Assembly (NCBI GenBank): GCA_047967505.1
Contig: CM106538.1
DNA length: 64,000 bases
Reading direction: 5' to 3' (one strand)
DNA from: Dipteris shenzhenensis
Lineage: Eukaryota
Positions 17,065 to 64,000 of the stretch are shown here, piece by piece (position 1 is the stretch's first letter; each line of letters begins with the position of its first letter). The notes beneath the pieces are model-generated. The model saw only the letters and a program-made list of their open reading frames with translations, was not told the origin of the DNA and did no database searches. The translations under genes were made by a program, and so were the position numbers.

Positions 17065-18990
17065 TGTGATGCCAAAAATTGATATTTTTTATTTGGCATT
17101 GGTATTGTTTTCTTCTATGTTTGATAAGAGTTTGAGTATCAAGTGATAGCCTAGTGGCTCTCACTTATTTCTATTTTCTAAGATATTGTATGGGATTGAG
17201 AGGATGAGTGGAATGGATCATTGTAAAATACCATAAGTATGAATTATAAATACCTTGGTATGGGGTGAGAGTTATTTGTGTATGGGATATTATGGGGTTT
17301 TTAGAAAATAGGAAGAGTGAGTCATATAAAGAGGTGAACTCATGTCCATGTGTTCCAATAATATAAGAGAGGCCACATGCCAAGCACGTGGAAGGCATGT
17401 GGAGGAGTGTGGAGTCAAAAGGAATCCTTCTAGAATTCCTATGTGGAATAAGGAGGATGTGGACATATGGAAAAGAGAGGGTCCCTATGGGCTCCACGTG
17501 GGGAGACTCTTGACTTTCTCAATATTTTAAGAGTATTGAGCATATCTTGATGGGACAAATGGCAAGAGTAGCCAAAAAGGACATGGATGGTGACATACAG
17601 GCTTATGTGATTGATGGGGAAAAGAATGTATAGGCAACAATTGTAAATGATTGAAGGAGGGTGATAAAATCTCTATAAAAAGAGCCCTCCTCTCCCTTGT
17701 TCATCATCTCTTCCACCATTAGGCCTCATGTTGCTATAGCTCTAGTTTCCTCAAGCCTCTTCCATGAGCCTTCTCTCCCTCTTGTAGATATTCTCTTATG
17801 TAGACTCTTGAGTCCATCTCTCTCTAGTTTATTCTCTCTCTCTATGAGTAGTCTTGGAGCTTCCGCTCTCTCTTGTATGTATGAAACCTCTTCTTCTCCC
17901 TTGTGTTTGTAGTATTTTGAGTGTATTTGAGTGGAGTCTTACTCTCATGGCAATGAAAGTCACTTCTCATCATTTTCCTTGAGTCTCCATTCCTATGTCC
18001 TTTTCCCTCTCTCTATTCAAGTCTCTAAAGTAGTTGTTGTTCGGCCGCTCACTGTGCACACATGGTCCATTCTTTTCCCAAGCCACCATGCAAGCTTCTT
18101 CCTATATTTTAGGCAAATTCTAAGGGTATTGGATGGTTGATAATTGTGGAGCCTTGAGGGAGTAGTTTGCTCAGGCGAAATTAGCATGGGTGGAGGGTAG
18201 TTTTTTATGACAGTTTGACCCCTTGTTAGTGTTTTACTCATAACGTTCTGCTAAATAGTCCAATTTTAATAAAAATTATATACTACAAAGCTCTCTTCAA
18301 GGCGCATGTTCTTGTGTGATTAGATCTTGAATCAAATACTACTGTAAAAAGTTATGAGTCTCTGTGTTTGACAATCTATTTTCATGATAGTTTTTACCCC
18401 CTTTCAGTAAACTATCCATATCTCTTCAAGCAGTTATCTGTTTTCAATGAAACTTATATCAATACGAACTCACTTCAAGGCACATACTTGTATGTACTTT
18501 AATTTATGATATCAGTTTTTTGCTGGAAGTTATAGACCTCTGTGTTTTCTAGCAGTTTGTAGAATGATTTGAGCCATTTCTAGAGGTTTCTGTGAAGGGG
18601 GTGCCATGTTTCCCCGGAATTTACCCATCCAGCCAAATTAGCCCCTTCAAGCCCCTAGATATATATTAGCTCATGTTATGTTGCACCAAAATATATTCTT
18701 CCAACAATGCATCGCTCTTCTCTTTGGTGCTAACTGGCTTGGTGAGATAATGGCTTCTGTAGATCCTTTTCTTCTCCCGATGCTAGACTACAACATCACT
18801 TGGGATGTTACCATATTCATTCTCCTCTGAGGGAAGCAAGGACAAAGATATATTGTGGTTTTCTTTGCATGAAAATATTTTCTTCATCTCTCTTTGCAAG
18901 TGATAAGGGTCCCTATTATTAAGATTGGGAAGAGCAAGAAGCTAAGAGGTGCGTGAAGTTTCATTACCCCCAACTTCATGCCACATCTTT

Positions 18991-19110: not shown

Positions 19111-19260
19111 ATGCCTAGAAGAACTCCATTAGAAGAGATTACAGCCCGTTTAAGAGAACTAGAAGATTGTGAAGGTGATGCTCAAGCTATTTGCACAGTC
19201 ATCATGATCATATCCTTTATGTTTGCACTCTTGAATATGTTGGTGAATCGACAATGCTAG
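19111..19260 (+). CDS. 49-aa micro-ORF upstream of gag (charged N-terminus, hydrophobic C-terminus)
   Basis: MPRRTPLEEITARLRELEDCEGDAQAICTVIMIISFMFALLNMLVNRQC*. Homologous to 43802-43966. Confidence 0.75.
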   Translation: MPRRTPLEEITARLRELEDCEGDAQAICTVIMIISFMFALLNMLVNRQC

Positions 19261-27472: not shown

Positions 27473-30400
27473 TATTGAGATATTGAGCTCCACTCATGAT
27501 ATGCCAGGGTGACCATTGTGCATTTATGTCATCGACTTGTTAGCTGCAGATGCAGTTGGTACACCGCCCATGAATAATAGCTGGATGACAGCTATCCTTA
27601 TGTACTCTAGTTCGTGACTCAATTAGTATGCCACCTTAGTTAGCTGAGTTTGGTTTGAGACCCACATATAGGGTTCTTCTATTTCTTTGTACTAGAGTTC
27701 TTTTGGCTTACACAACTAAGAAGAGGAAAACTGTTTTCAGCCTCCACCTTTGTGTGTATTCCCCCATTGTGTATGTGAGAAAGCCACAAGTGAGACTCCT
27801 TCCTTCTCTTCCACTATCTTCACATGGTATCAGAGCCTGGTTCATGGTAAGGAGCTCAAAAAAGCAAACCAAGTTTGCGGTGTCCTAGTAAGAGGACCAG
27901 TGTTGCTTTCCTTTTTCGAGTTTGGGAGCAAACCTCTGTAGGTAGCACAGCCAGAAAGTGCAAGAGTGCATTGTCTCAGATTGAGACACCCTTGGCGGTG
28001 TGGCGAGAGGGCAATATATGCTGCGGGACAATGCAAAGCCCTGGGTGACTTTATTTTTCTGATTCGAGGCCATTTGGGGCCTATTTTGGAGGCGGAAGTT
28101 CTCCGCAAGCACTGAGAAAAAGGCCCTGTTTTTGCTGTGCGACCACTGCTCTACAGGTCGGTGAAAAGTTGCCACGGAACCCCACAAAAATTGCATCGTA
28201 TGCCTATGCATCAAGACATTAGGAGTTGCAGAATCATCCTTATTGCCTATTGATGAAAAATCATCACTAGGAAGTGACTGTGTGGTCAAATACCACTTTC
28301 GTCAATTTTGCAAATTTTGCCCGTGTGAGGCAGAAGTTGTGTTTTTGGCAGTGATAGAATATTTTGCAGTGTTCTGTAATGGCGTCTGATTCTCTTTCAT
28401 AGATTGTCACTGAAAAGCTTGACAAGAACAACTTCCAAGCATGGAAGTTTAGAATGATGAATTTCCTTATGGGAAAAGGCTATTGGGAGTTCATTACAGG
28501 AAATGAAGAAGAACCAGTTCTTTTTAATGTTCCCAATCAACAGGAAATGCAGGCATTTAAAGGATGGCATGAGAGAGCCAAAAAAGTTATGTATTGGCTA
28601 TCTATCAGTATTTTGGATTCTATAATTGTGCATATTCAGGATGCAAGTACGCCAAATGAGGCATGGGATACTTTGGCAAAAATGTATAGCACAAATACGC
28701 AAGCCATGAAAATGCAGCTCAAGCAAGAGTTGCACAATGTGTAGAGAGAAAATATGAGCATTAATGACTACCACATGAAGGTGAAGAAAATTGTAGATGC
28801 ACTTGCTTCCATTGGGTCGCTAGTGGAAGATGATGATCTAGTTTCTGTGAGCTTGAATGGTCTAGGAAAGGATTATGCACAGTTTCGGACATCCATCGCC
28901 GTCCGTGAAAAATTTTCTGATTTTGAGGAGTTGTTTGCTCTTCTAATTTCTGAAGAGCTGAGAAATGGTGGTGCATCTTCTTCAGGAGGAACTTCAAAAG
29001 AAACTGTCTTCTACTCAAATGCTGGAAGAGGTAGAGGCAGAGGTAGAGTAGGCCACCAATCTGGAGGCCATGGTAAAAATCAGAATGTGTAGCAAACTCA
29101 AGAAAACCAGCCTATGGAGGAGGACGTGGTAACTCTAGAGATAGGGGGAACCAAAGAGGTCATGGTGGATGGCAGAGAGGCCAAAATGCAAACAGCAATG
29201 TTGAATGCTACTACTGTGGTAAAATGGGTCATATGGCTAAAGACTCTGCTACAAAAAGTAGAATGACATTATGAATGGAAAATTACAGCAAGGCAATTAT
29301 GCATCCTCTAGTAGACAGGGTGATGACAGAAATGAGCATTTATTTATGGTGCAGCACATGACCAATTCTGTGACAAGTACAGAAGAAAGCAATGATGTGT
29401 GGTATGTTGACTCAGGTGCGTCAAACCACATGACAGGTCATGCAAAATGGATGTAGGATGCAAGGAAAATAGAAAGACCAAGATTTGTGGAGATTGGTGA
29501 TGATACTACACACCCTATTGTGCAGATTGGTGATGATACTACCCATCCTTTGTCTATGTAGGATGGGAAAAAGAAATACCTGTCCGATGTATTTCATGTC
29601 CCGATTATCACCAAGAACCTAGTTTCTATTGGTCAAATGGTTGAGCAGGGCTTGCAGGTCAGATGTAATCCTCATGGATGCTTTGTTGAGGATATGAAAA
29701 ATAATGGTCGCTTGATAGCAAAAGGAAAGAAGAAGGGTAGGATGTTTACGTTGGATGCGGACATGCTTGAATTGAGTGTAACAATGTTTGCACATGGGAC
29801 CAGTGTAGTTGCAGATATTGATATCTGGCATAAACGCATTGGTCATGTTAATGTACAATGACTTAAATCAATGCAGGCCCAAAATATTGTTGCAGGATTG
29901 CCTAAATTCAAGGTTGCAGAAATGCATAAGGTATGTGAAGCCTGTCAATTCGGAAAATAGGCAAGGAAACCATTTCCTAGACATGTTCAAGAGAGTAAGA
30001 AGCCATTGGAATTAATCCACTCTGATGTGTGAACTACTAAACCTGCATCTATTGGAGGCTATCATTATTTTGTCACTTTTATTGATGACTACAGTAGAAA
30101 AGTTTGGGTGTATTTTATGAAAAAGAAAAGTGAAGTGTTTGGGCATTTCAAAGCTTTCAAAGCTATGGTTGAAAAAGAAACGGGCTTGCAAATAAAATGC
30201 CTAAGGTCAGATGGAGGGGGAGAGTACCTCTCAAATGAGTTTGCAAGGTTCCTATAGGAGCATGGCATAAAGCAGCAATATTCATGCAATCATACCCCAC
30301 AGCAAAATGGACTTGCAGAAAGGAAAAACAGGCATATTGGAGAGGTATCTCGGCCATGTTAAATGAAAAAGACCTACCAAATTATCATTGGATTGAAGCA

Positions 30401-33008
30401 GTTGCTACAGTAGTTTACATAATAAACAGGACTCCCACTGCAGCAATACTTGGCATGACACTAGAGGAGATGTATAATGGTAGAAAACTAGATATTTCTC
30501 ATTTGAAAATTTTTGGTTGCATTGCCTATCTTCATGTGCCAGATGAGTTGAGGTCCAAGTTGGATCCAAAAGCTGATAAGTGCATCTTTATTGGTTATTC
30601 TCTGCAGCAAAAATGGTATAGATGCTATAACCCTTCTACTTGTAAGTCTACAGTGAGCAGAGATGTTGTTTTTGATGAGATGAGCAGCTGGTATAAACTA
30701 GTAAATGTGATTGATGATGTAGATGCACAAAATGGTAATGCTACACAGAATTCATTGCAGCAATCACAAAATATTAGTGGACTTCCAGTGTCCTCTAGTA
30801 GTGGTTCACATACTTCACCATGGATAGGCAGATTGAGATCAGGAGAATCTCCTCAAAGCAATGCAGATAGTGGTATGCAGGTATCACGAAAAGGAAAAGA
30901 GAAGGTAGATCAGCCCATGTTTGATGTGAATGCAGGTCACTCTTATGTGGATGGTGAATCCAGTTGCTCAAAACAGAGCATTGATGATGAGTTGGGTATT
31001 CCTTCTCTTGTTACACCTGGAGTAAGGAAGACCAGGGATGTTTTGAGAGCTTTTGGAAATGAGCCTATTTTGTGCAGGTCTAGCAGAGCTAGAACCCACT
31101 TCTTTTGAGCAAGCCATGGGAAAAGAAAAGTGGGAGAAAGCCATGGATGAAGAAATGGATGCCATGGAAGCAAATGCTACATGGGAATTAGTGCCTTTGC
31201 CTAAAGACAAGAATGCACTTGGCTGTAAGTGGGTTTATAAGGTGAAGCACAATGCAGATGGTTCTATGAACAGATACAAGGAAAGATTAGTTGTCAAGGG
31301 TTATGTATAGACATATGGCATTAATTATGAAGAAACATTCAGTCCAGTTGCAAGGATGGCAACTGTAAGAGTAGTCATTGCTATGGCTACATCAAAGGGA
31401 TGGTCTTTACATCAGATGGATGTGAAGAATGCCTTCTTGCATGGTGATTTGCAAGAAGAGGTCTTTATGGAGCTGCCACCAGGTTATGTTCATGCTGTTC
31501 ATCCTAAGTTTGTTTGCAGGTTGAAGAAAGCCTTGTATGGCTTGAAGCAAGCACCTAGAGCATGGTCTGACAAGATAGGACAGTATCTTGTCACTATTGG
31601 CTTTCAGATTTCCAAGGTAGATTTCTCACTTTACGTGAGAAAAACAGAGAAAGGTATTATGCTGCTTGTCATTTATGTTGATGATTTGATCATTACAGGT
31701 GATAGTGATGAAGATATCCTTCATGTGAAAATGCTATTGAAGCAAAAGTTTGAGATGAAGGATTTGGTAGAGCTGTGTTATTTCTTGGGCATTGAGGTGA
31801 TTAGATCATCAAGTGGGATACGGCTCTTGCAGAGGCAGTATGGATTGGACATGTTGTCCAAATATGGGATGATAAACTGTAAGCCTATTTCAGTTCCTTT
31901 GGAGCAGAATGTGAAGCTGAGCGCAGATGCAAGTGAGCTTCTGGAAGACCCTACTATGTACAGACGCATAGTAGGAAGTTTGATTTATAAGACTATTACT
32001 AGGCAAGATTTGAGCTATGCTGTTGGATTGGTAAGTCAATTTATGCAGGCTCCAAGGAAACCGCATTTGGATGCGGCTAGATGCATACTCAGGTATGTGA
32101 AGTCCACATTGTAGTATGGACTATTTTGTGAGGCTGGGGTTCAGATACAATTGCATGGATACACTAATGCTGATTGGGCTAGTAGTATTTCTGATAGACG
32201 ATCTACCAGTTGATATGTGTTCTCTTTTGGGAGTGCTGCAGTCACTTGGAGGAGCAAGAAACAGCTTACAGCTGCCTTATCGAGCACAGAGGCTGAGTAC
32301 AGGGGTGCAACAATGGCTGCATGTGAGGTAGCTAGGTTGCATAAGCTACTTTATGATATGCATTAGTCTACAGATGGGCCAGTTATCATTTATTGTGACA
32401 ACATGAGCAGTATACACTTGGCATATACACTTGGCAAATAACGCAGTCTATCATGGTAGAACAAAGCACATTGAGGTGCATTATCACTATGTGTGGGAGA
32501 AGGTTTTACTAGGTCTTATTGATCCAGTTTATGTCAGCACATAGAATCAGGTAGCTGACATATTCACGAAGGCATTGGGCACAGAGAAATTGCACAAGTT
32601 TAGAGACCTGCTTGGTGTGCAGGAATTGGGATTGAGCTCATGGGGGAGTGTTGAGATATCGAGCTCCACTCATCCACTCATGATATGCCAGGGTGACCGT
32701 TGTGCATTTATGTCACTGACTTGTTAGCTGCAGATGCGGTTGGTACACCGCCCATGAATAATAGCTAGATGATAGCTATCCTTATGTACTCTAGTTCGTG
32801 GCTCAGTTAGTATGCCACCTTAGTTAGCTGAGTTTGGTTTGAGACCCACATATAGGGTTCTTCTATTTCTTTGTACTAGAGTTCTTTTGGCTTACACAAC
32901 TAAGAAGAGGAAAATTGTTTTTAGCCTCCACCTTTGTGTGTATTCCCCAATTGTGTATGTGAGAAAGCTGCAAGTGAGACTCCTTCCTTCTCTCCCACTA
33001 TCTTCACA
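27473..33008 (+). mobile_element. Ty1/copia F nested in the gag of E; full-length but decayed
   Basis: LTRs 27473-27824 and 32649-33008, TSD AATGC, PBS at 27825, PPT ggggga. Motifs WYVDSGAS, LRSDGGGEY, HQMDVKNAFL and IYVDDL. Confidence 0.96.
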
Positions 33009-37012: not shown

Positions 37013-37423
37013 GAAACACCGACTAGCTCTTGGTTTGATGCAGAGGAAGGACATTCTCATTAAAGGGGTGTGATGGAATGTAATGCTCAGTCCTTCTTTG
37101 ATTCCCCAGAATCATCATCTTGAGGGAAGACATACTTCATGATGTTGATCTTGAGAGAAGGTGTTGAGAGTTCACGCTCAACATCATGTGATCATGTGTG
37201 CATAGCACCATCATGTGATCATATGTGCATAGCACTAACCTTATAGAGTGCTATAAAGGAAAGGGTTAGATCCCCTAACCCTAACCCTAAAAGGGTTTGT
37301 ATATGTTCTATTTTTTCAACTAAATCTAGTGTACAATTAGTCATTTGTGGTGTACTCTCTAGCTGTGCCCTCTCTCCTCATCTCCACTCTTCTCCTCTCC
37401 CCTCTTCATATTTTGTCAAAGTC

Positions 37424-38826
37424 CTCATTTAAAGGAGCTTAATCAAAAGGCTATGGCACTATGTAGTCAGTTTGATTTTTGCAAGTTTGTTCATATAAAC
37501 AGATAATAAAATCAAAGGGCAGATGAGTTAGCTACTCAAGCCATTGTAGTACAAGACCAGGGGGTGGTTTCTTTAGTAGACACTGGATGACCATAACTGC
37601 AAGATGTTTAGCAATATGTGGAAGAAGGCATGTTTTGTCGAGGGTTAACTCCAAAACAGAAGCAAAGATTGGTGAGGAAAGCTTGTCCCTATACTATTGT
37701 TGATGACATTCTTTATAAATTGGGAAAAGATAAGGTGCTCTCTCAGGTGGTCCATCCCATGGAGACTAGGAGAATCCTAGAAATGTGTCATGAATGCTCT
37801 GGTCATTTTGCTTTAGCAAGCACAACTAGGAGAATTCTTAATGTAGGTTACTTTTGGCCATGCCTCCATATATGAATGGTGTCGAAGTTGTAAAGTATGC
37901 CAAAAGTTTGGAAGGCGACAATTGATTCCTGGGCCCTTGAAGCCTATTCCAGCCATAGACCACTTGAGAGGTGGGGGTTGGACTTTGTGGGACCACTCCC
38001 TCGCTCATCTCAGGGCAAGCATTATTTATTGGTGGCCACAAATTATGCGACTCGATGGGCAGAGGCCAAGGCCATAGTCAATAGTAAGGTAAGCACAGTT
38101 GCAAAATTTCTCTTTGATCAAATTTGTTCACGCTTTGGTTTTCCTTTGGAAATTCTCACTCATGGAGGAACCTCTTTTAGAAATGAACCAATTGAAGATG
38201 TGGTGCATAAGCTAAAGATAAATCATAGCATGTCCATGCCATACTATCCCCAATGTAATGGCTTGGCTGAGAAAACAAATGGATTGTTGTGCAATTCAAT
38301 GGGAAAGCTTGTAGCCACTAAGAAAAGGCATTGGGATAGGCACTTGGCAGAAGTTTTATGGGCTTACAGAACCACACACAAGCTAGCTATTAGGTTTACA
38401 CCATGCCAACTAGTGTATGGAATAGAAGCCATTTTGCCCATTGAATCGGAGATACATAGTCTTCGCACTGCTTTTGCAAGAAAAGAAGGACAGGAGGATG
38501 CCTATGCTCAATGCTTGGTACAACTAGAAGCCTTGGATGAATGCAGATTATAGGCCTTACAAAACTTGGAAGCTTCTCAAAAAAGGCGCAAGGCCTACTT
38601 TGACACCAAATTATGCAAGAAGAAAGATATTGTAGAAGGAGATTTGGTTATCAGATTTGATAGCTGTATAGACAAGCGGCTAGACAAAAAGTTTATCGAC
38701 CGATGGGAGGGACCATATGGAGTCAAAAAGAAGTTCACAAATGGAACCTATCCATTTGAGGATGTTGATGGCATGGTGATACTCGGGTGCACCAATGAGT
38801 ATCACCTTAAATTCTTCTATGCTTGA
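37424..38826 (+). pseudogene. Gypsy C aRH C-terminus and integrase
   Basis: CHECSGHF zinc-finger region, WGLDFVGPLP, YYPQCNGLAE and the WEGPY (GPY/F) motif. Confidence 0.9.
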
Positions 38827-39215
38827 CCACCTTGAGGGCCAGCAGACCCTCTTTATCACTAGAGAGGATCTGCTGGGGGGAGAAAGATGTGATGCCAAAA
38901 ATTGATATTTTTTATTTGGCATTGGTATTGTTTTCTTCTATGTTTGATAAGAGTTTGAGTATCAAGTGATAGCCTAGCGGCTCTCACTTATTTTTATTTT
39001 CTAAGATATTCTATGGAATTGAGAGGATGAGTGGAATGGATCATTGTAAAATACCATAGGTATGAATTATAAATACCTTGGTATGGGGTGAGAGTTATTT
39101 GTGTATGGGATATTATAGGGTTTTTAGAAAATAGGAAGAGTGAGTCACGTAAAGAGGTGGGCTCATGTCCATGTGCTCCAATAATATAATAGATGCCACA
39201 TGCCAAGCGTGTGGA

Positions 39216-42200
39216 TCTCTGTTTGATGTAGTGCAAGGCGTCGGGTCTCATCTAACTTCTCAAGTTGTACCAATCTGGCCTCTACATGTTCATCTTCTAT
39301 CATCCTTTGTTCCTGTGCCAATCTCAAGGCTGGAATCTCTATCTCTAGTGGTAAAACTGCCTCAGTACCATACACCAACTCAAAAGGGGTGTGACCTGTA
39401 GATGTTTTATGAGTGATGTTGTAAGCCCACACTACTTCAGTGACCTTCTGATCCCATTGGCTCCTATTCCCTGCGGCCATTTTTCCCATGGTTTTACAAA
39501 GGAGGCCATTGGTCCGCTCTGTTTGACCCATGGATGCTAGATAATAGATGCTAGAAGTGTGATGATCAATGCCCATGCGATCCATGAGTAACTCCACTGC
39601 TTCATTTAAGAATGGACTCCCATGGTCAGAGACTATCTCCATGGGTGTCCCAAACCTTGTGCAGATACGTTCAAAGATGAAATTTGAAACTACCTTGCCA
39701 TTTGCAGCAGAGAGGGCGATAGCTTCAGCCCACTTAGTGACATACTGAGTGGCTACCAAAAGATACTTCTTTTTGCAGGCAGTCATGGGCAAGGGCCCGA
39801 CAAAATCTATTCCCCACTTCTGAAACGGATGGATGGACATCACTGGGTGATGTTGCCCGGGACGCAAATCTTTCTTACCGAAGAATTGACATGGTTCACA
39901 GGTTTTGCAATACAAAGTGACATCCTTGAACAAGGTCGGCCAATAGTATCCAGCATGTAAAATCTTCTTAGCTGTATAGTCACTGGCATAGTGGCCTCCA
40001 CAAAATCCATCATGATAATGCTTCAATACCTTAGGCACTTCATCTGCATCAATGGCCCGTCTGAGTACCCCATCCATGCCTTGACGGTACAACACCCCAT
40101 CAAGGAGGGTGTAGCGTCTACTATCTCTGTGGATCTTCTTTCTCTCATAGCTTGTACTTCCTGAAGGAAAGGAGAAAGCGGCCAAAAACTTGTAGATACC
40201 ACCATACCAAGGATCCCCAACTTCTATGGCTGCTACAAGGGTTACATCAAGGCACTCCTCTAAATCAATCAAAGCATTCTTCAAGTTGGACTAACCCCCT
40301 TTTACAATTTTGAAAGAAAAATCATATTCTTGTAGAACTGCCAACCATTTGGCCAACCGGCCCATGGGATTTGGTGATTGAAGAACCTGCTTTGCAAGAC
40401 CAGTGCCAATTTGTATAAAGAAGGACTTTCCAGCCACATAATGCTTAAATTTCTCAATGCAAAACACCAAAGACAATGCATGCTTGTCAGCCTCTGAATA
40501 GCGTCACTCAGTGTCGAGCAATTGTCGAGAAGCAAATCGAACGGGGTACATGAACCGATCCTCCCCTTGCTGGAGAAGAATACCTGCCAGAGTGTGCTCT
40601 CCAAACCCAGGATTGATATAGAAGGTCTTTGACCAGTCTGGATTGCGTAGAATGGGTTCTGAAGCCAGAGCCTTCTTGATTTGTGCAAACCCATGATCAC
40701 AATCCTCATCCCAAGAGAAATCAACCCCATCTTTTAATAGCATAGTCATGGGCCATGTCAAAGTAGCATACTGATCAATGAAGCAGTGATAGTATCCTGC
40801 TAGATTGACAAATGAGCGTACCTGACGTTTGGTTGTAGGTGGGGAGAGTTTGAGGATGGCTTCTACCTTCTCAGGGTCACGGTTGATGCCCTCGGATGAG
40901 ACAACATGTCCCAATAACCTCCCTTGAGTGGCTCCAATGGTGCATTTCTCAGGGTTGAGACTGCCATTTGCATCATTGACCCTTTGGAAGGCCAATCTAA
41001 CCTTCATGATGTGCTCCTTACGTGATGAGAATATACAGAAATCATCTAAAAACACCTCCAAGAAATCCCCCAAATAAGGAGAAAACACCATCTGCATAAA
41101 TCTTTGAAAGGTGGCAGGAGCATTGGTGAGGCCAAATGGCATTACTTTGAATGCAAATGTCCCCCAGGGTGTGGCAAATGTGGTTTTAAGCACATCTTCC
41201 TCGGCAATTCTGATTTGATAAAACCCAGAGTAACCATCACAGAAAGTATACATCTCATGACCACTTACCTTCTCAAGAATGAGGTCTTGAAAGGGTAGAG
41301 GATGATGATCCCTCTTGGTGGCAGCATTGAGCTTCTTATAGTCGCGATGCAGACCCGCCACTTGTTGTTTTTCTTTGGGATGACTACCACTGGTGAAACC
41401 CATTCAGTATTGTGAACCGGAACAATAAACCCAGCCTCTATAAGCTTCTGCAACTCTGAGTGCAAAGCGTCGCTCTGTAGGGGCCCTAATCTTCGATACT
41501 TCTGAGCCACAGGCTTTGCATCAGGCTTCAGCTCTATCTTGTGCTCTATGGCAGTCACATGGCGAAGGTGGTGGTAGCTAGTTGCAAAGAGGTCAGGGAA
41601 ATCTTTGAACATTTCAAGAAACTCATCTTTCTCACCTGGAGTGAGGTCTGGAGAAAGCATTGATTCGAGCTGTTGAGGACTAGCTGTTATCTTTTTTGCA
41701 GGTGGCAGGGTCGGAGACACCCCCATCATGTAAATTTCCTCCTCTGAGAATTCGTCCCCCCCGTCTGATTTTTCCATGGACTCAGACACTGAAGATGAGA
41801 TAGTATCACTGTCATGCTTCTCTTCTTCTTCCAGTTCCATGGCACCAGGTTGCATAGGGATTTTCTCCTTGGAAGCACCAAAAGACATGTGTCCTGTCTT
41901 CCAATAGCTGACTGCATCACTTTTTCTCAACCATGGTCTCCCCAGTATGGCTGGGTAACTTCTGCCTGTATCTTCAATGTCCACTACATAGAAATTGATA
42001 GTGGTGGTCAACCCGTTGACAGTGATGGGCAAATCCTCAATGACTCCCATGGTGGCGAGTCGTCGACCATCTGCTACCTTGATTCGAGTGGAGGAACACC
42101 TTGTACATTTCAAATTCAATTTCTTCATGATGTGGGGCACCATGATATTACATGCAGCTCCCCCATCAACACACACATTTTTGACATGGCAATTATCTAT

Positions 42201-43586
42201 GATGACATCTACTGTGTGTGGGTGCCGATCAATTTCTTCAGAGATAGAAGATACCTCTCGTACCTTTCTCTTTTTCTTGCTCTTCCTTGTTGAGAGACCT
42301 TGCTGTATCTCACGTCTCACCTTAGGGCTTAATGCTATTAGTTGAGGGAGTGTGATGCTCAAAGACCGATGAGCAAGGTCCTGAACGACCGAATAGTCCT
42401 CTTGCCCTGAGCCGATGGGAAAATCCGAGGGTGACCACTTACTCCTGCGAGATCTTTTAGTCTTCTCTGTTGGTGGGTCTGCCATCTCAGCATCTGAGGG
42501 CTTTGAGAAGGACACCTTCTTCTTGGGGTGGCCCGTTCCACGGTTTGGAGAGGGGTCCGAGGTAGCACGAGTTCTTTTCCCGAGATCAAGGATCTCCACA
42601 TCAGAATCCTCAGTGCCCGACTCACTTAGAAGATTCACCCTTGGAATATTGGGGCATTCTGTGCGATAATGACCCTTCTGGTGGCACTCGTAGCATACAA
42701 CATTAGCACGATCTCTTGGAGGGCAGTTGGCTTGATTTCTGATGCCCACCATCTCAAGCCGAAGATCATTCAGGGCCTTGGCTAAGTCATTGACTCCAGG
42801 TTCGGTTGCAAGGGGGGCCTCTTTAGTTGGAGGGGCCATGGGAGTAGAGAGGAGGGGGGATCATGGGCGAGGCTGGGGAAATCTTCGAGGCGGAGGATGA
42901 GGATATCCACCTTGTTGAGGGTAAGCATCTAAGGGAGGACCATACATCTGAGGTGGAGGCGGTGGATACATCCTTGATGAGGGGTGGGGGTATGCCCCTG
43001 AGTTAGACCCCCCAGGTTGTTGTTGCAGGAATGGAGGGGGATGCGGAGGGACAATCGTCTTCTTTGAGGCGGGGTCAGACTGAACTTTATCAAACTTTTG
43101 AGCAATCTCATGTGCTAGCACCATAGTTTTAGGATTCTCCCATTTAAGCTTGAGGCGGAATTCATCACTCGCTCCTGCTACAAGGTAGCCCAGCACATGC
43201 TGAGTCATTCCAGCTTGAAACCCGGCATTGTCCTCCTGTGTGGCAATCAAACGGTCCAGGAGCACGGCCGCTCGATCCACATATCGACGCGCCATCTCAC
43301 CTTCTAACTGCTTCAAATTTGCCACCTGTAGGTACACATTCTCCGGCTCCTCTTCTTTGCCGAAATACTCAATCATTGCTGCTATCAACCTTGGCCAGCT
43401 TTGGCGAACATCTTCGGCTTGCTTCTCATACCACACTTGAGCCAAACCTTCTAGAAATGTGGGAAGAACCAATAGCCATCTATCTTCAGTAAGAAAGTTG
43501 AGAGAAACACAACGGCGCTTGAAAGCCACAAGATACTCATTTGGATTTTCTTCTACCCGTCCACAAAACACGAGAATGTCAGCCAT
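39216..43586 (-). pseudogene. gag-pol: Gypsy D gag-pol (gag-PR-RT-degenerate RH-INT), with few lesions
   Basis: ORFs 42861..43586, 41265..42839, 40504..41403, 40291..40476 and 39163..40284. Motifs CYECHQKGHYRTEC, VDGGAACN, FLDDF and WGIDFVGPLP. No aRH between RH and INT. Confidence 0.93.
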
Positions 43587-43801
43587 GCTTGGAAGATGGA
43601 AAAGAGGGGCTTATCTATGGACGAACAATAGTAAGAGGAAGCTTGAACTGAAAATCGGGTGAAGATACATCCAAAAAGCACACATAGGCAGGGTAGGGTG
43701 TGACTGGTGTAGTGTGAAATATTACACGAGAAGAATCTTCAGCATAGAATAGCACATAGACAATCTTAAAAGGACCAACCCTCATGATATCACATCGATC
43801 A

Positions 43802-43966
43802 TTACAAGCGAGGGTTAGAGGCACAGCGTTGCATGAGGTTGTTCATCAAGGCAAACAAGAATACCATGACAAATGTCAACAGTTGGAGAGCTTGCACATC
43901 ACCTTCAGCTTCTTCCAGTTCTTGTAGTCGCCATGCTGTTTCTTCAAGGGGTGTGCGGTCTGGCAT
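43802..43966 (-). CDS. 54-aa micro-ORF upstream of gag, homolog of 19111-19260
   Basis: MPDRTPLEETAWRLQELEEAEGDVQALQLLTFVMVFLFALMNNLMQRCASNPRL*. Confidence 0.75.
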   Translation of the reverse strand: MPDRTPLEETAWRLQELEEAEGDVQALQLLTFVMVFLFALMNNLMQRCASNPRL

Positions 43967-44079
43967 TCTTCTTTTGAGCAATGTCCTTGAGAACCCTCCT
44001 GATGATCTGCCGAAGTCGGTAAACTCATATCAAGTATGCCCAACACTTAGTTTCATGATGACCACAACCTCTGCATTCC

Positions 44080-44544
44080 TTACAAATGATCACCCTCCTT
44101 CGTGGCTTGCGGCTTTGTTGGGGTGGCGCTTCCACTCGCGTCATGCGTGATTGGAGTACAAGCTTCACGTGCCAAGAAATCAGCAACTAGATTTTGAGCT
44201 CGAGGGATATGCTGAATTTTTACCTCTTCAAATTGGTTGCAAAGTTCCAAGGCTTGTTGATGTCGTGGAACCAAGCCTTTGCTCCGCACCTTCCACCTTC
44301 CACTAACTTGTTCACATACTAGTTGAGAATCTCCTTGCACCTCCAATTGCTTGGCATGATGTTCTTGTGCCTTTTGTAGCCCAAAGATGAGCGCCGAGTA
44401 CTCAGCTTGATTGCAAGTACTTGCGGGTGAAGACTTGCTGTAACAATACTCCTCACCACCCGGTGAAGTGAGCTTCACACCCATGCCAGCCGCCTTGGTC
44501 GAAGGTTTGTAAGCTCCATCAAATTGAAGAATCCAAGATGTCAT
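44080..44544 (-). CDS. Free-standing archaeal-type RNase HI (aRH)
   Basis: MTSWILQFDGA...CNQAEY...VQGDSQLV...HIPRAQNLVADFLA, with all four acidic catalytic positions present. A CCHC knuckle follows in another frame (44090-44025). Confidence 0.9.
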   Translation of the reverse strand: MTSWILQFDGAYKPSTKAAGMGVKLTSPGGEEYCYSKSSPASTCNQAEYSALIFGLQKAQEHHAKQLEVQGDSQLVCEQVSGRWKVRSKGLVPRHQQALELCNQFEEVKIQHIPRAQNLVADFLAREACTPITHDASGSATPTKPQATKEGDHL

Positions 44545-45383
44545 CACACCAAAACTAAAATTCGGACATCCCAAGTTTCTCGGTAGTCCAAGATAGGTAG
44601 GAGGAGAGGGTGGGGAGAATTCAACACTTGAGCCAAACGTTCAGCACCAAATAAACTTGCAATCCTTTGTTGATAGTTTATCTTAAGACCAAAAAGAATT
44701 ACAATTTGAAGCTCGAAATGAGGCACAAAAGGCTGATTAGGTATAAATGGATTCCTTGGTCAAAACATTACCAACCATAGTCGAGGCCTAGAAACCTTTG
44801 TAATGAGATTGTGAATAAACCATTCAGGATGAGCTTTTCCACAGGAATCAACAAGCAGATGCGCCAAATCTCCCCCCAAGCTTGGGGAGCATCCCACCCT
44901 TCGATGAAGGATACCGTTTTAATTATATCTGAAGTAGCAAGTAGTTCGATCACCGCACAATGAGTAGAAGTAAGTAAAAATCCTCCCAGCGTATCAGTAG
45001 TTCGTCACCATGAATCATCCATGGTGTATCATTCCACCCATCATCACCATCAATAATGCACTGGACAATCAGCCGTTGAAGGTCGACATGAAGATCAAGG
45101 AAGACATCTCGTGCATTGGTAGCCGTAAGGTGCAGAGGAACAGGCACCAATTCCTTAAACGCGTCGAGAAGTGACATAAATGTCCACCCTTCTTGTGAGG
45201 CGTGTGTCCATGAAGTGAGCTTGGAGAAGTTCTGAATTGGCAATCTAGCAAGAGATGTGGATAGAGCACATAAAATGAAATATTTTTGCTTTTTACAACA
45301 AGAGCAAACTCCTTACGGTTAGAGAGTTACAGCTCCCGTGATTTCAATATATGAACAAAAATCATTACATTTTTACCACTTCC

Positions 45384-45454
45384 AACTTGTTGGCCCAATG
45401 ATAAGACTTCCTTTTGTGAAGGGGGAGGTCTTGGATTCCAATCCTACTCTTTAA
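45384..45454 (+). other. tRNA-like sequence (SINE head or tRNA pseudogene)
   Basis: A-box-like TGGCCCAATG, stem TCCTT/GGGGG around the 7-nt loop TTGTGAA, variable loop AGGTC and B-box-like GGATTCCAATCC, all at canonical spacing. No acceptor stem. Confidence 0.4.
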
Positions 45455-45766
45455 TAAAAAGAGAAAGAGAAAGAGAAGGAGAAGAAGAAGAAGAGAAGAG
45501 ATAGGGGGGGGCGCGGGATCTGTTGTTACTCTTTTGCAGAGGCTCAGAAAACAATAAACTGTCCTCAACCCGAAGTCATAGCAGTCCAGAGAACTGGAGC
45601 GCAGAAAACTGTCCGCAACCAGAAGTTGCAACAGTCCAGAGAACTGTCGCGCAGGAGACGCACGAATCGAATGCATGCACAGTAGCTTAGAAAGAGCACA
45701 GATGGTATAGTTTTGTTGATGTAACCCGTACGAATAGAAGATTCGCCACCAGCCATGGAGATTCGC

Positions 45767-45784
45767 ATCCCAGCAGCCACACCA
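45767..45784 (-). promoter_or_regulatory. Primer-binding site of gypsy D, tRNA-His-like
   Basis: The plus strand reads atcccagcagccacacca, matching the plant tRNA-His 3' end plus CCA as I recall it. Confidence 0.7.
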
Positions 45785-46778
45785 AAACTTTTAGCCGGAA
45801 AATTTATCGAGACCAGAGGCTAGAGGCTAAATATGGCGACGCTCAAAGGCCATAGAGAAAAGGAGATCATGAGGGCGAAGGGATGCCATAGGGGTGAAAA
45901 AGGAATTAGAAGTGGAGGGAAGGAAAAGGGAGACTATGACACAAGGGGAAAGGGAGAGGGGGAAGAGAAGCATGTACATGATAGGAGGAGGAATGTGGAG
46001 ATGTAGACATCAAGGGAAGAGAATCATACTTTATTTGAAAGAAAGGATGAGAGGGAAATATCAAAATACTAGCTAGGTGGCTTTACAAGAATGAGCGTGT
46101 CTCATCAAGGAATAGCCCCTTCCTTTTATAGCCAAAAGAGGGGGTCTCTCCACATTAATGTATCCTCCCACATGCATGGTGTGTGTGGAAAAGTCTCCCA
46201 TGTGGGCTAGGTGGGTACGCACTCTCAATTGTGTGCGACAACCCTTTGCCTCAATTTTCCACATAAATCAAGCCCCATATCTCAAGTCTATGATACTCCC
46301 TTGGTCTCTTTCCAATTTTATAATATGTTCAAACCTCTAGGAGGACAAGTGGAGGGTTGGCACAAGGAATCTTGCCACCTCATCCTACTTTCCCCATTAT
46401 TTAACTAGCTCTCTTGGTCCTTCTATACCTCCCCCACATGGGCCTATCCCATATGGAGGGAATACCTCAATATAATATCTATCTCCACCTATTTTATATT
46501 GCTTCTCCCATGGACTTTGAGCCATATCTCACTAAATGTAGCCTAGGTGGAGGGGTGGCACATGGAGGAGCATGCCACCTTGCATTTTATATTATTACTA
46601 TTATGGATTATGTACAACACACCTTATGGGTCCTCTTACATGGAAGGGTGGCACATGGTCATGCCATGCCACCTCAACCTTGGGCCCTATGCACACCATA
46701 TTTTATTATACTATTGCCACATATACAAACACACATACATATTAATGCCTTTTTCCTTAGACAATTTTATCCATAACA

Positions 46779-50190: not shown

Positions 50191-50279
50191 TGATGTTGTG
50201 TTTGTAGTTTTTGTTGATTATACACCAATTTGTGACTTATTACTTAAGTGGCATTTACTGATGATATTTACAAAATTAT

Positions 50280-50709
50280 TTCATGCACACAATTTTATGA
50301 TATGAATGTGTGATGATGTGATTATTTGGAAATAAATCCTTGTGTGATGAGAATTTTGATATGAATATGTGATGATGTAATATTTGTAATATATTTCTTC
50401 ATGCACACAATTTTATGATATGAATGTGTGATGATGTGATTATTTGGAAATAAATCCTTGTGTGATGAGAATTTTGATATGAATATGTGATGATGTAATA
50501 TTTGTAATATATTTCTTCATGCACACAATTTTATGATACGAATGTGTGATGATGTGATTATTTGGAAATAAATCCTTGTGTGATGAGAATTTTGATATGA
50601 ATATGTGATGATGTAATATTTGTAATATATTTCTTCATGCACACAATTTTATGATATGAATGTGTGATGATGTGATTATTTGGAAATAAATCCGTGTGAT
50701 GAGAATTTT
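50280..50709. repeat. 118-bp tandem repeat, about 3.6 nearly identical copies
   Basis: Unit starts (tcatgcacacaattttatgata) at 50281, 50399, 50517 and 50635. Confidence 0.95.
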
Positions 50710-52439: not shown

Positions 52440-54443
52440 TAAATTTTATAGGATGAGACTCATGTATCACAAAAACTAGATAAATAAACTATCCCTTATC
52501 TAGAATGAACATTTGTCATATTCATTATAATAATCTTTTCCTTGTTGCAAGCCTATTCCATTGCACATTGCATCTTGATTCCCACAATGTAAACATTATG
52601 TATTTCTTGTGAACATCAAATAACTTGAGTTTATGTATCATAAGACATGGATATCCTAGAACAACAGTATAGGTTTCCAATATCCAAGCATTTCTACACA
52701 TAATACATGAGCTTATTGATTGCATTTTTTATAAGAACCAATCTCTCATAAACTCACTAAGAAATAAATAAAACTATTTTGGCAACCAAGTAGAAGGGAA
52801 AAATAAAACTATTTTGGCAACCAAATAGAAGGATTTATTTTAAATATTGAATCAATTCACTAGCTCGGAGCTCCGTATGAAGTATTGAAACTTTTTAGTT
52901 CTCCAGCTTGGTGATCTTGTATACTTATGTTCTTTAAAGTATTGAAAAAGTTTGAAATGGAAAAAAACAATCAAATATTAAGACCACCCAATAGAAAAAA
53001 TGTCCCTAAGTGAAATATCCTATTGTTATCCTCTTTTAGGCTATGTATAGCTTCTATATGAGACTTTAAGGTCCCTCATGGTAGTTCCTCTTTTTTGTGT
53101 CATTACTTGCATGATACTTGGAAATGCTTATGCAAATAAACTAATATCCCTAGATTGATCAAACCAATATCCTACATGAATGTTTGAAGTCTTTAACATA
53201 ACATTTGAAGTCCCACATACAAGAACTTTAGGACTCCCATATAGGGGTTGATCAATATTCCACATGAAACATTTGAAGTCCTAAACATGATATTTAAAGT
53301 CCCACATACGAGTTTAGAAGCCCACCATGGAAGTGAATCAACATCTCGCATGGAATATTTGATTTTTGAAATGGGATATTTAAAGTCCCTTGTAGGAGTT
53401 TGGTGGTCCCTTATGGAATTTGAAGTCTCCCATGGGAGTTTTAAGGTTCCTTATGGGATTTAAAGTCCTTTGTCAGAATTTTCTAGCCTGTTATGGGATT
53501 CGAAGTACCACATTGGAGTTTTAAGGGTCTCTTGTAGGCTTTGATCCATGTCTCACAAGGGAATTTAAGCCACATTTAGGAGTTTAGGATCCCTTATAGG
53601 ATTCAAAATCCCACATAGGAGTTTTGGAGTCCCTATTGAGATTTTATCCATGTCCCATAAGGGATTTGAATGCCATATAGGAGTTCAGGGTCCTTAAGGT
53701 ATCAGATCCATGTACGACAAGGGATTTGTAAAGTCCCATGTGCAAGATAGCAAGTTTTTATGTAAATTTCTTTGACATGATATGAAATTACATTTCTAAA
53801 GAATTAATTTGAGATTTATGAACTTAAATAGTATGTAAGAGTTTTTTTTAATAAAAACCATGTAGAAAAAACCTGGGTTATAGTAGCATCTTAAGTCCAT
53901 TTGATATGATGCTATTGCACAATAGCTCTAATGATACTAGCAACATTGATGCAATAAAGGAAGCTATACAGAGATGACGGATTTCTAAAAATTTTGTTGT
54001 GGTGAGAACTATGTTGCGATCAATGAGCATGTGTGTCAGTCCACATCATCATGTCCCACTTGTCAATTTGATTCTAGTGATGCTACGATTGATTAAAGAA
54101 TGGAGGACTACATTTATAGAAAATATATTTGGTTATGAAAACATATGTATTTGATTCTATTATTGCAAGGTACAAGGTGACACCCACATTGTCCAAAATT
54201 GCCACCAATGGTTAAGGTTCTTACAAATTATCGATGCTTTTTTTTACTCTTTTTTTTCCAGATGCAATATCGACTCTAATATCAACATTTGCTAGAGTAT
54301 TATTAATGCCCATACTGATGGTAATATATACCATAATAATATGGATGAATGTAACTATTGCATTAATGTCGATGATATGGTCTTGAGAAAAAACCTGAAG
54401 AAAAAGCATTCATAGGAAACATTGATATTGGTGTCCACGATAG

Positions 54444-54497
<54 letters not shown>

Positions 54498-55051
54498 CTT
54501 CAATTGTTATACGAGGAATCTCTTGGTCATAAATTAACCATTATAAGAAAAGAAAAGAAGAAAGCCACTTATTGACAAATGAAATAGACAATGTCCAAGA
54601 TGAGATGCTTTCTATTGTAGCTATTTCAAGATGATATGATTATTAACAATATAAATCAAGAGATTCGACATTTGGTATAAAAGAATTTTATTATGTTTGT
54701 TAATTTCACAATACTATTAAATAATGTGCAATTTTTTAATTCCAATTATGTTCATAGTATGGACATCAAGTTGTTTGTGATAAAAGATGGGGAAATCAAT
54801 TATTGGGAAGGGAGCCATACCAGAGAACATTTTAAGGGCAGGCTACAAGAGTAGGTAGGGCCTTTGTTACATGTTTAACTATCATCAAAAGTTGGAGAAA
54901 CTCTTCAGTAGCTAAGATATAAGAAATTTTGGGTGGAGGATGGTCCACCTAATAGGAGACAATGAGCAAGGGAGTTAATTGGATGGCTAGACAATCTAAT
55001 GGCCCATGTGATGCCTTCCAAAGAGGAACTAATAATTAGCTAGCATGTTTA
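52440..55051. repeat. ~2.6-kb segmental duplication, copy 1
   Basis: Nearly identical to 59181-61813. Paired ORFs in the track: 52525/59258, 53248/59993 and 54221/60967. Confidence 0.97.
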
Positions 55052-59180: not shown

Positions 59181-61199
59181 TAAATTTTATTCTCATGTAT
59201 CACAAAAACTAGATAAATAAACTATCCCTTATCTAGAATGAACATTTGTCATATTCATTATAATAATCTTTTCCTTGTTGCAAGCCTATTCCATTGCACA
59301 TTGCATCTTGATTTCCACAATGTAAACATTATGTATTTCTTGTGAACATCAAATAACTTGAGTTTATGTATCATAAGACATGGATATCCTAGAACAACAG
59401 TATAGGTTTCCAATATCCAAGCATTTCTACACATAATACATGAGCTTATTGATTGCATTTTTTATAAGAACCAATCTCTCATAAACTCACTAAGAAATAA
59501 ATAAAACTATTTTGGCAACCAAGTAGAAGGGAAAAATAAAACTATTTTGGCAACCAAATAGAAGGATTTATTTTAAATATTGAATCAATTCACTAGCTCG
59601 GAGCTCTGTATGAAGTATTGAAACTTTTTAGTTCTCCAGCTTGGTGATCTTGTATACTTATGTTCTTTAGAATCTTGCAAGTATTGAAAAAGTTTGAAAT
59701 GGAAAAAAACAATCAAATATTAAGACCACCCAATAGAAAAAATGTCCTTAAGTGAAATATCCTATTGTTATCCTCTTTTAGGCCCTGTAATATAGCTTCT
59801 ACATGAGACTTAAAGGTCCCTCATGGTAGTTCCTCCTTTTTGTGTCATTACTTGCATGATACTTGGAAATGCTTATGCAAATAAACCAATATCCCTAGAT
59901 TGATCAAACCAATATACTACATGAATGTTTGAAGTCTTTAACATAACATTTGAAGTCCCACATACAAGAACTTTAGGACTCCCATATAGGGGTTGATCAA
60001 TATTCCACATGAAACATTTGAAGTCCTAAACATGATATTTAAAGTCCCACATATGAGTTTAGAAGCCCACCATGGAAGTGAATCAACATCTCGCATGGAA
60101 TATTTCATTTTTGAAATGGGATATTTAAAGTCCCTTGTAGGAGTTTGGTGGTCCCTTATGGAATTTGAAGTCTCCCATAGGAGTTTTAAGGTTCCTTATG
60201 GGATTTAAAGTCCTTTGTTAGAATTTTATAGCCTCTTATGGGATTCGAAGTACCACATTAGAGTTTTAAGGGTCTCTTGTAGGCTTTGATCCATGTCTCA
60301 CAAGGGAATTTAAGCCACATTTAGGAGTTTAGGATCCCTTATAGGATTCAAAATCCCACATAGGAGATTTGGAGTCCCTATTGAGATTTTGTCCATGTCC
60401 CATAAGGGATTTGAATACCATATAGGAGTTTAGGGTCCCTTAAGGTATCAGATCCATGTACGACAAGGGATTTGTAAAGTCCCATGTGCAAGATAGCAAG
60501 TTTTTATGTAAATTTCTTTGACATGATATGAAATTACATTTCTAAAGAATTAATTTGAGATTTATGAACTTAAATAGTATGTAAGAGTTTTTTTTAATAA
60601 AAAACATGTAGAAAAACCCTGGGTTATAGTAGCATCTTAAGTCCATTTGATATGATGCTATTGCACAATAGCTCTAATGATACTAGCAACGTTGATGCAA
60701 TAAAGGAAGCTATACAGAGATGACGGATTTCTAAAAATTTTGTTGTGGTGAGAACTATGTTGCGATCAAGGAGCATGTGTGTCAGTCCACATCATCATGT
60801 CCCACTTGTCAATTTGATTCTAGTGATGCTACGATTGATTAAAGAATGGAGGACTACATTTATAGAAAATATATTTGGTTATGAAAACATATGTATTTGA
60901 TTCTATTATTGCAAGGTACAAGGTGACACCCACATTGTCCAAAATTGCCACCAATGGTTAAGGTTCTTACAAATTATCGATGCTTTTTTTTACTCTTTTT
61001 TTTCCAGATGGAATATTGACTCTAATATCAACGTTTGCTAGAGTATTATTAATGCCCATACTGATGGTAATATATACCATAATAATATGGATGAATGTAA
61101 CTGTTGCATTAATGTCGATGATATGGTCTTGAGAAAAAACCTGAAGAAAAAGCATTCATAGGAAACATTGATATTGGTGTCCACGATAGGGGAGATAGC

Positions 61200-61259
<60 letters not shown>

Positions 61260-61813
61260 CTTCAATTGTTATACGAGGAATCTCTTGGTCATAAATGAAC
61301 CATTATAAGAAAAGAAAAGAAGAAAGCCACTTATTGACAAATGAAATAGACAATGTCCAAGATGAGATGCTTTCTATTATAGCTATTTCAAGATGATATG
61401 ATTATTAACAATATAAATCAAGAGATTCGACATTTGGTATAAAAGAATTTTATTATGTTTGTTAAATTCACAATACTATTAAATAATGTGCAATTTTTTA
61501 ATTCCAATTATGTTCATAGTATGGACATCAAGTTGTTTGTGATAAAAGATGGGGAAATCAATTATTGGGAAGGGAGCCATACCAGAGAACATTTTAAAGG
61601 TAGGCTACAAGAGTAGGTAGGGCCTTTGTTACATGTTTAAATATCATCAAAAGTTGGAGAACCTCTTCAATAGCTAAGATATAAGAAATCTTGGGTGGAG
61701 GATGGTCTACCTAATAGGAGACAATGAGCAAGGGAGTCAATTGGATGGCTAGACAATCTAATGGCCCATGTGATGCCTTCCAAAGAGGAACTAATAATTA
61801 GCTAGCAAGTTTA
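59181..61813. repeat. ~2.6-kb segmental duplication, copy 2, containing (GA)n at 61201-61257
   Basis: Aligns with 52440-55051. The GA tract is longer than in copy 1. Confidence 0.97.
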
Positions 61814-62671: not shown

Positions 62672-62756
62672 CTGCAAGATCCTAGGTTAGCTTTGTATTG
62701 GCCAGATTTATGTGTGAGTAGTAAGTTATTATACGTTAAGAAGCAAAGCAACTCAC

Positions 62757-63955: not shown

Positions 63956-64000
63956 CTGCAGGCCATCACACCCAGATATTTACTTCCATTCGTCCAAAAC

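Follow-up and report, generated by a model that had tools for sequence, protein, structure and literature searches.

Short open reading frames upstream of gag in a degenerate, probably Tat-clade retrotransposon of Dipteris shenzhenensis

Introduction

Which of the short open reading frames (ORFs) that lie nearly end to end upstream of a retrotransposon's gag gene are genes, and do the stop-start overlaps that join them mean that several proteins are made from one RNA? The question is raised by a stretch of 64,000 nucleotides (nt) of Dipteris shenzhenensis DNA (contig CM106538.1 of assembly GCA_047967505.1; the whole stretch is called "the window" here, and all coordinates are positions in it), where an earlier note, made from the sequence alone, described an operon-like chain of such ORFs in the leader of a minus-strand retrotransposon that we call element D, and proposed that D may express several proteins from one polycistronic RNA. 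We find that D is probably a degenerate, 3'-truncated Tat-clade Ty3/gypsy element and that, judged by sequence comparison, its leader probably holds three genuine cistrons, ORF3, a stand-alone archaeal-type RNase H (aRH) and a 54-codon ORF (ORF54), the rest of the chain being chance. The seven ORFs and five overlaps lie at the coordinates given in the earlier note, the last ORF ending 28 nt ahead of the gag ATG at 43586 and the third carrying a TGA at its third codon (M-F-stop), both as had been claimed. They are as follows:

ORF1: 44950..45243 (stop-to-stop 45312-44950), minus strand, TTG start, coding unsupported.
ORF2: 44768..44953, minus strand, GTG start, coding unsupported (Pfam and comparison with the window and element T, below).
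ORF3: 44544..44768, minus strand, about 74 codons, TGA at codon 3 (44762-44760) and then 71 open codons.
aRH: 44080..44544, minus strand, stand-alone 154-codon ORF upstream of gag, Pfam RVT_3.
ORF54: 43802..43966, minus strand, the "micro-ORF" of the earlier note, 54 codons, N-terminal half acidic, tail hydrophobic and helix-like.
MIDVIS*: 43782..43802, minus strand, six-codon micro-ORF, probably a chance feature.
ORF6: 43615..43785, minus strand, 56 codons, coding unsupported (Pfam and comparison with the window and T).
Junctions, all on the minus strand: ORF1/ORF2 GTGA; ORF2/ORF3 TAATG; ORF3/aRH TGATG; ORF54/MIDVIS TAATG; MIDVIS/ORF6 ATGA.

Results

Element D carries an archaeal-type RNase H ahead of gag

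Pfam places a zinc knuckle, protease (PR), reverse transcriptase (RT), native RNase H (RH) and integrase (INT) in minus-strand ORFs at 42860-39163, where the Ty3/gypsy domain order PR-RT-RH-INT is present. The two genes downstream of the leader are:

D gag: 42861..43586, minus strand, weak Pfam Retrotrans_gag match (E 3.2e-4, under the curated cut-off), resembles the gag region of T.
D pol: 39163..42860, minus strand, with frameshifts and stops, cut off near 39215, from Pfam and alignment to P0010.

The gag ATG at 43586 stands in the context CCAAGCATGG. Gag and pol share a frame, with a lone TGA between them at 42861-42863 (minus strand; QPRP*SPLL) that may be decay or a read-through stop. The RT and native RH of P0010, an angiosperm Tat polyprotein, align to D 41346-40297 and its INT to 40215-39199; since the native RH of D (to 40297) runs directly into INT (from 40215), the extra RNase H sits before gag and not in pol, and the aRH part of P0010 aligns to the D leader at 44559-44140. 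In pairwise tblastn comparisons D is 31–35% identical to five Tat polyproteins. Read by eye, the native RH (40291-40560, minus strand) seems to have no acidic residues at the three motif places of Ty3/gypsy RNase H, a state that would fit the "tether-like" decay published for Tat elements.

The aRH ORF, which begins 494 nt ahead of the gag ATG, matches Pfam RVT_3 with an E-value of 1.2e-26 (93.5 bits, cut-off 21.6). The long relatives closest to it are Tat-type polyproteins (35–43% identity), with the similarity confined to 44625-44116, and its close relatives are nine proteins at 73–85% identity, two of which (84–85% identity) are 154 amino acids (aa) long and stand at the head of clusters with 25 and 8 members. 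When the window ORF is aligned with 14 full-length relatives, all 15 sequences are 154 aa long without an indel, and residues D9, E48, D72 and D122, which we take to be the catalytic residues of the RNase H motif, are invariant in every one. The start methionine is the same in seven of the eight close relatives that cover the N-terminus. Scans for sister-copy DNA in metagenomes gave nothing in one case and only relatives at no more than 43% identity in another (80 loci kept).

The 3' end of aRH and the spacer behind it overlap one further feature, in the +1 frame:

CCHC zinc-knuckle-like relic: 44043..44129, minus strand.

By tblastn this knuckle resembles that of T gag (20361-20447; E 2.5e-5 against the T region and 0.005 against the whole window) and D's own gag knuckle (42719-42654; E 0.008). 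Pfam gives nothing for it at E ≤ 1, and it may have been left behind when aRH changed position.

ORF3 belongs to a family of small proteins with a common end

When the 71 open codons of ORF3 were searched with HMMER against 50%-identity cluster representatives, 31 proteins matched at E ≤ 1e-3, six of them at E ≤ 1e-10 and most of them 63–118 aa long. P0125, an ARM-repeat protein, was treated as a probable chance match and set aside, which leaves 30. In an alignment of the window ORF with 30 matches, 23 of the 31 sequences end at one column, right after a hydrophobic motif, six run on and two are cut or divergent; in a cleaner set the same column is the end of 21 of 23. Conservation is not limited to the C-terminus, spanning about 50 residues, and some family members (P0105, P0106, P0112) contain two tandem copies of the conserved domain.

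Neither the window ORF nor the small family proteins scanned (nine) belong to a Pfam family, AceK appearing in one of the nine at a sub-threshold E of 0.12. AlphaFold2, run on the ORF3 alignment, predicts a beta-alpha-alpha-beta-beta domain (pLDDT 85.1, pTM 0.60) for which Foldseek found no match in PDB at E ≤ 0.001 (best Z in VIA wide 3.3); these structure searches establish the fold neither as new nor as known. The ESM Atlas gave no usable match for ORF3 (best 0.85) or ORF54, scans of viral contigs with ORF3 and P0110 gave no match, and an exact look-up of six window ORFs in a protein collection found none present. Together with the other elements of our reading of D, we think it likely from the alignments and the model that ORF3 is a conserved small gene for a small folded alpha/beta protein.

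Could ORF3, instead of encoding a working protein, act as a conserved-peptide upstream ORF (uORF), regulating translation of aRH or gag through a nascent peptide that stalls ribosomes at the ORF3 stop? It is situated in a 5' leader, nothing in it is better conserved than the position of its stop and its C-terminal motif, and a conserved stop with a C-terminal motif is typical of plant conserved-peptide uORFs. This explanation is nonetheless improbable, given conservation over about 50 residues, a predicted compact domain with a pLDDT of 85, and the tandem domain copies of P0105 and P0106.

A different objection is that ORF1, ORF2, ORF3 and aRH are frameshifted pieces of one ancestral protein, so that the junctions record decay. 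One of the nine close aRH relatives (P0047) does read ORF3 and aRH in a single frame, an extra base behind 44971 links the frames of ORF1 and ORF2, and in a few Tat polyproteins the alignment extends upstream of the aRH ATG, by as many as 27 codons. The earlier note had named a single long ORF in sister copies as the outcome that would undo its chain, and that outcome holds for P0047 and fails for the 14 full-length relatives, whose aRH is exactly 154 aa with the same start. The common stop of 23 of the 31 ORF3-family sequences is shared by members only 30–45% identical and by a copy in T that has no aRH behind it, and no protein of 66–210 aa resembles ORF1. We regard the ancestral single protein as very improbable.

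A second Tat element carries ORF3 and ORF54 without aRH between them

The window holds a second, plus-strand element with counterparts of two of the leader ORFs:

T: 17065-39215, plus strand, Tat-like element, RT at 21697-22465 and integrase at 37894-38550.
ORF3-like ORF of T: 18606..18830, plus strand, found by tblastn with the ORF3 family, in-frame TAG at 18639-18641.
ORF54-like ORF of T: 19111..19260, plus strand, 49 codons, in the T leader.

The first residues and the end of the ORF3-like copy match those of D ORF3, and tblastn with ORF54 finds T 19111-19251 at 53% identity (E 1.5e-13); the leader DNA of the two elements is too diverged for blastn. The codon-by-codon comparisons of D with T are:

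ORF3: 71 codons; 52% aa identity; codon positions 0.55/0.75/0.38; pN/pS 0.35/0.77.
ORF54: 49 codons; 51% aa identity; codon positions 0.57/0.73/0.37; dN/dS about 0.17.

As far as sequence comparison goes, these codon-position patterns are those of protein-coding constraint. Elsewhere the identity of D and T is 43–51% for RT, 38% for integrase, 37% for aRH and 31% for the gag/protease region; the conservation of ORF3 and ORF54 thus matches that of RT and exceeds that of integrase and aRH. T has its RVT_3 RNase H inside pol, at 23376-23981, and because it nevertheless has both small ORFs, ORF3 and ORF54 are independent of aRH. The spacer from ORF3 to ORF54 is about 280 nt in T, and D has aRH there, starting on the ORF3 stop. 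As part of the same overall reading, ORF3 and ORF54 are probably accessory genes of the Tat lineage.

The tail of ORF54 is predicted to be a single membrane-helix-like segment, with a 19-residue Kyte-Doolittle maximum of 1.91 in D and 2.55 in T; the hydrophobic stretch is followed by only 9–13 residues, which contain no basic cluster.

The remaining overlaps are at the level expected by chance

The junctions of the chain exist as described, but the chain is interrupted: 113 nt lie between the aRH stop and the 54-codon ORF at 43966-43802. The start codons of ORF1 (TTG) and ORF2 (GTG) are starts of the bacterial table and not eukaryotic ones, and with bacterial starts three of the four bases possible before TGA yield an "overlap". 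We counted stop-start overlaps of the two kinds used in the earlier note over 45312-43587 and compared them with 500 dinucleotide-preserving shuffles, and their number is not above chance. With ATG, GTG and TTG as starts and ORFs of at least two codons there are 25 junctions versus 20.1 ± 3.7 in shuffled sequence (13% of shuffles reach 25) and the longest chain is 6 versus 3.7 ± 1.3 (10%); with at least six codons there are 16 junctions versus 14.0 ± 3.4. When only ATG is accepted the counts are 5 versus 4.1 ± 2.0 (38%) for at least two codons and 5 versus 2.7 ± 1.7 for at least six. The sole borderline case, 4 versus 1.2 ± 1.2 (5%) for the three starts and at least 30 codons, arises because genuine coding remnants outlast shuffled ORFs in length. 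Stop-start overlaps that are defined by bacterial start codons are the chance expectation in any decaying sequence.

No relative of ORF1 of 66–210 aa was found among 5.8 billion proteins; ORF1, ORF2 and ORF6 have no Pfam family (E ≤ 1); and tblastn searches of T and the rest of the window gave no match for ORF1, ORF2, ORF6, the frame ahead of ORF3 or the frame 44046-43879. An identity of ORF2 with a LINE zf-RVT, suggested by eye, was dropped, there being no Pfam match at E ≤ 1. In T no ATG overlaps the stop of the ORF3-like or of the ORF54-like ORF, so D's TAATG after ORF54, where MIDVIS begins, is not conserved.

Variation among related copies was surveyed by aligning related contigs from four runs to 42600-46200, the differences cited here being the best supported, beyond which there are 554 substitutions and 33 indels. 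Run X1 comprises 275 contigs, 35 at ≥99% identity, 114 at 95–99%, 96 at 90–95% and 30 below 90%. Among the indels listed, an extra A behind 44971 occurs in three X1 contigs (depth 19.1/57.8) and one X4 contig (6.14/10.2), and merges ORF1 and ORF2 into one frame of 181 open codons. Four substitutions are listed in ORF6, at codon positions 2, 1, 3 and 2.

As far as the sequence goes, chance in a decaying non-coding leader accounts for ORF1, ORF2, MIDVIS and ORF6 and for four of the five overlaps. The earlier proposal of several proteins from one polycistronic RNA survives in that aRH, ORF3 and ORF54 are conserved as separate ORFs upstream of gag, and is lost as an operon-like chain, since the overlaps are at chance and ORF1, ORF2, MIDVIS and ORF6 are absent in T; of its junctions, only the ORF3/aRH overlap joins two conserved ORFs. 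In its full form, with all seven ORFs as cistrons of one RNA and each overlap driving termination-reinitiation, the proposal can point to overlaps that exist, to three ORFs that are conserved, and to known cases in which such overlaps cause reinitiation (caliciviruses, influenza B, hypovirus and the SART1 retrotransposon; PMC10275272, PMC2699510). Set against this are overlap counts equal to those of shuffles, TTG and GTG starts, the 113-nt gap, an ORF1 without relatives, four ORFs absent from T, and a T without overlaps at the stops of both conserved ORFs. The full form is largely refuted here, and we give it next to no chance of being right.

The overlap of ORF3 and aRH may couple their translation

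The one overlap that deserves a closer look is that of the ORF3 stop, TGA 44546-44544, which shares one base with the aRH ATG at 44544-44542. Two related contigs bridge the junction free of gaps, X1 record 4 (44492-44714, 5 differences) and X2 record 11 (43658-44684, 42 differences). Between the ORF3 and aRH starts lies a single other ATG, against about 4.7 expected from the average of the leader, and the ORF3 AUG is itself in a weak context (G at −3, T at +4). The pentamer UGGGA, which we take to be the 18S rRNA-complementary motif of the TURBS (termination upstream ribosome-binding site), occurs at 44573-44569, 22 nt before the ORF3 stop, as the Trp-Asp codons of ORF3, and is also present in T. 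The ORF3 stop and aRH start lie well inside the about 20 nt given for termination-reinitiation in sections of PMC10275272.

In intact copies a ribosome would end ORF3 at the UGA and restart at the overlapping AUG to make aRH; alternatively it would scan past the weak ORF3 AUG to reach aRH, and such leaky scanning is equally open. The position of aRH, whether it arose by insertion or was maintained by selection, would then be one at which a ribosome finishing ORF3 can restart. From the putative transcript start to the gag ATG there are 53 ATGs, and because of these upstream AUGs gag is beyond the reach of scanning; its translation would require splicing, shunting or internal entry. That translation of aRH is coupled to ORF3, whether through reinitiation or through leaky scanning, is a tentative proposal from the sequence, to which we give somewhat less than an even chance of being right.

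The competing possibility is that aRH, ORF54 and gag are each made from spliced or internally started subgenomic RNAs, UGAUG being a by-product of the insertion of aRH. The many ATGs before gag and a junction with no structured element detected upstream of it speak for such RNAs, and related plant elements, Ogre and Bagy-2 among them, are known to be spliced. Against them, no intron-like joint is seen in the leader among the aligned contigs (none of which is on record as RNA), and by a rough estimate a random insertion into a spacer of about 280 nt is unlikely to put the aRH start exactly on the ORF3 stop. We consider subgenomic RNAs possible, if doubtful.

Extent of D and its surroundings

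The end of D near 39215 adjoins a 328-bp repeat (38888-39215) that belongs to T and matches 17065-17392 at 95%. We considered this match as a long terminal repeat (LTR) of D and rejected it, as it belongs to the plus-strand element; no target-site duplication was seen. No tRNA-Met primer-binding motif was found near D. Upstream of the leader ORFs, one feature was read directly from the sequence:

Putative D promoter: 46122..46130, minus strand, TATA-like motif TATAAAAGG with CT-rich sequence behind it.

T has a comparable pair of features near 17670, a TATA-like motif and a CT-rich stretch, and by this analogy the D transcript is suggested to start near 46095, giving a leader of about 2.5 kb. 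The upstream part of the leader contains a tandem duplication of about 57–60 nt (45560-45690 and 45449-45502, minus strand), one unit of which is skipped or repeated in related contigs, with a CT-rich low-complexity run beside it. A tRNA-like look of 45370-45445, noticed by eye, was supported neither by ARAGORN nor by Rfam at E ≤ 1 other than one row (sR20, E 0.55) that we take as chance.

T is interrupted by a copia element whose LTRs are at 23943-24197 and 37164-37418 and whose primer-binding site is at 24198; nested in that element is a second copia (LTRs 27489-27824 and 32673-33008, primer-binding site 27825). The 3' repeat of T adjoins the truncated integrase of D, and no target-site duplication is seen there. 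Direct repeats of 2.6 kb and 97% identity at 52459-55051 and 59192-61813 probably represent the LTRs of a further element, 50264-50709 is occupied by tandem repeats of 118-nt period, and OPT oligopeptide transporter exons (Pfam PF03169) at 62042-63999 (minus strand) belong to the one host gene observed in the window.

Discussion

We favor the reading of D as a decayed Tat element with three genuine leader cistrons, and several observations weigh against it or its parts. Both copies of ORF3 in the window are broken, by the TGA at codon 3 in D and by a TAG at codon 12 in T, and P0047, which has ORF3 and aRH as a single frame with Arg where the window has the codon-3 TGA, indicates that the separate state of these ORFs is not universal among sister copies. 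Conservation of the ORF3/aRH overlap is inferred from conserved protein ends and the two gap-free contigs; a structured element upstream of the junction was not detected in a 121-nt fold (z-score −0.77). ORF54 conservation is that of one pair, D and T. The lack of support for ORF2 and ORF6 comes from searches of Pfam, T and the window. Finally, self-BLAST finds no LTR pair for D in the window, the second D LTR being absent from it, so the label "leader" leans on analogy with T.

The placement of an aRH ORF before gag is already in print, as Tat "structure #4" (PMC10508981) or "pre-capsid" (Prokopeva et al. 2026, PMC13468544), with structure #4 families reported from mosses and Selaginella tamariscina in PMC10508981. 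By its sequence D is probably an element of this kind, with the Ty3/gypsy order, archaeal-type aRH as its own ORF before gag, and none in pol. The passages on structure #4 in these two papers cover the aRH ORF only and do not mention ORF3, ORF54 or a stop-start overlap. A description of small leader ORFs in plant Tat elements was not found in the literature searched, the supplements of the 2023 paper (PMC10508981) aside, and the new part here appears to be the two conserved small ORFs in the leader. How aRH functions from a separate ORF was posed as an open question in 2023, and the overlap of the ORF3 stop with the aRH start offers a testable answer to how a separate RNase H reaches the reverse-transcription complex.

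Extra ORFs (eORFs) at unconventional places, including upstream of gag, are known from the plant Tat/Ogre/Retand elements (PMC4408406, PMC6317226) and resemble ORF3 and ORF54 in that respect. They differ in carrying PMD or Transposase_28 domains, whereas ORF3 (74 codons) and ORF54 (54 codons) have no Pfam family; for the domains of plant Tat eORFs (PMD, Transposase_28 and Athila ORF-1; PF10536, PF04195 and PF03078) there was no Pfam match at E ≤ 1 in any leader ORF other than aRH, nor in the ORF3-family proteins scanned. According to its sections on extra ORFs, Neumann 2019 (PMC6317226) sought them at ≥250 codons only, and because of this ORF3 and ORF54 would have been invisible to earlier surveys; in the relevant part of Ustyantsev 2015 (PMC4408406), Tat-like elements of early lineages and mosses appeared without eORFs.

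Termination-reinitiation cassettes are documented at overlapping stop and start codons in the TURBS of caliciviruses and influenza B, the UAAUG of hypovirus, and SART1 (PMC10275272). The ORF3/aRH junction is like the TURBS type in having an upstream ORF of more than 70 codons whose stop shares a base with the next AUG (UGAUG), and unlike it in that the known cases use a structured upstream element. Plant pararetroviruses such as cauliflower mosaic virus (CaMV) and rice tungro bacilliform virus (RTBV) (PMC5902531) share with D a long leader, many upstream AUGs and consecutive cistrons; with no transactivator gene or shunt structure identified in D, this is an analogy only.

A further likeness, in arrangement, is to the Drosophila MDG1 group (412, mdg1, Stalker, blood), which has sORF1 and sORF2, the latter a short membrane protein needed for cell-to-cell transfer (bioRxiv 10.1101/2025.03.14.642691): in both cases two conserved small sense ORFs, one for a short membrane protein (predicted in D), lie upstream of gag. 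The features given there for sORF2 and FAST-like proteins are a length of 60–210 aa, one transmembrane helix, an N-terminal MGxxxS/T and a basic patch after the helix. ORF54 has a helix-like stretch, but is 54 aa long, starts with MP and has neither the MGxxxS/T nor a basic patch. The MDG1 likeness is thus an analogy in arrangement and not membership, and a sequence relation is not expected. A broader proposal, that Tat elements in seedless plants carry two unnoticed leader mini-genes (for an alpha/beta protein of about 74 residues and a membrane-anchored peptide of about 50) as a counterpart of MDG1 sORF1/sORF2, with a pre-capsid aRH set on the ORF3 stop and translated by reinitiation, seems to us rather unlikely to hold as a whole. 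If it is true that ORF3 and ORF54 are proteins, the Tat lineage would have accessory genes comparable to those that give MDG1 elements their cell-to-cell transmission.

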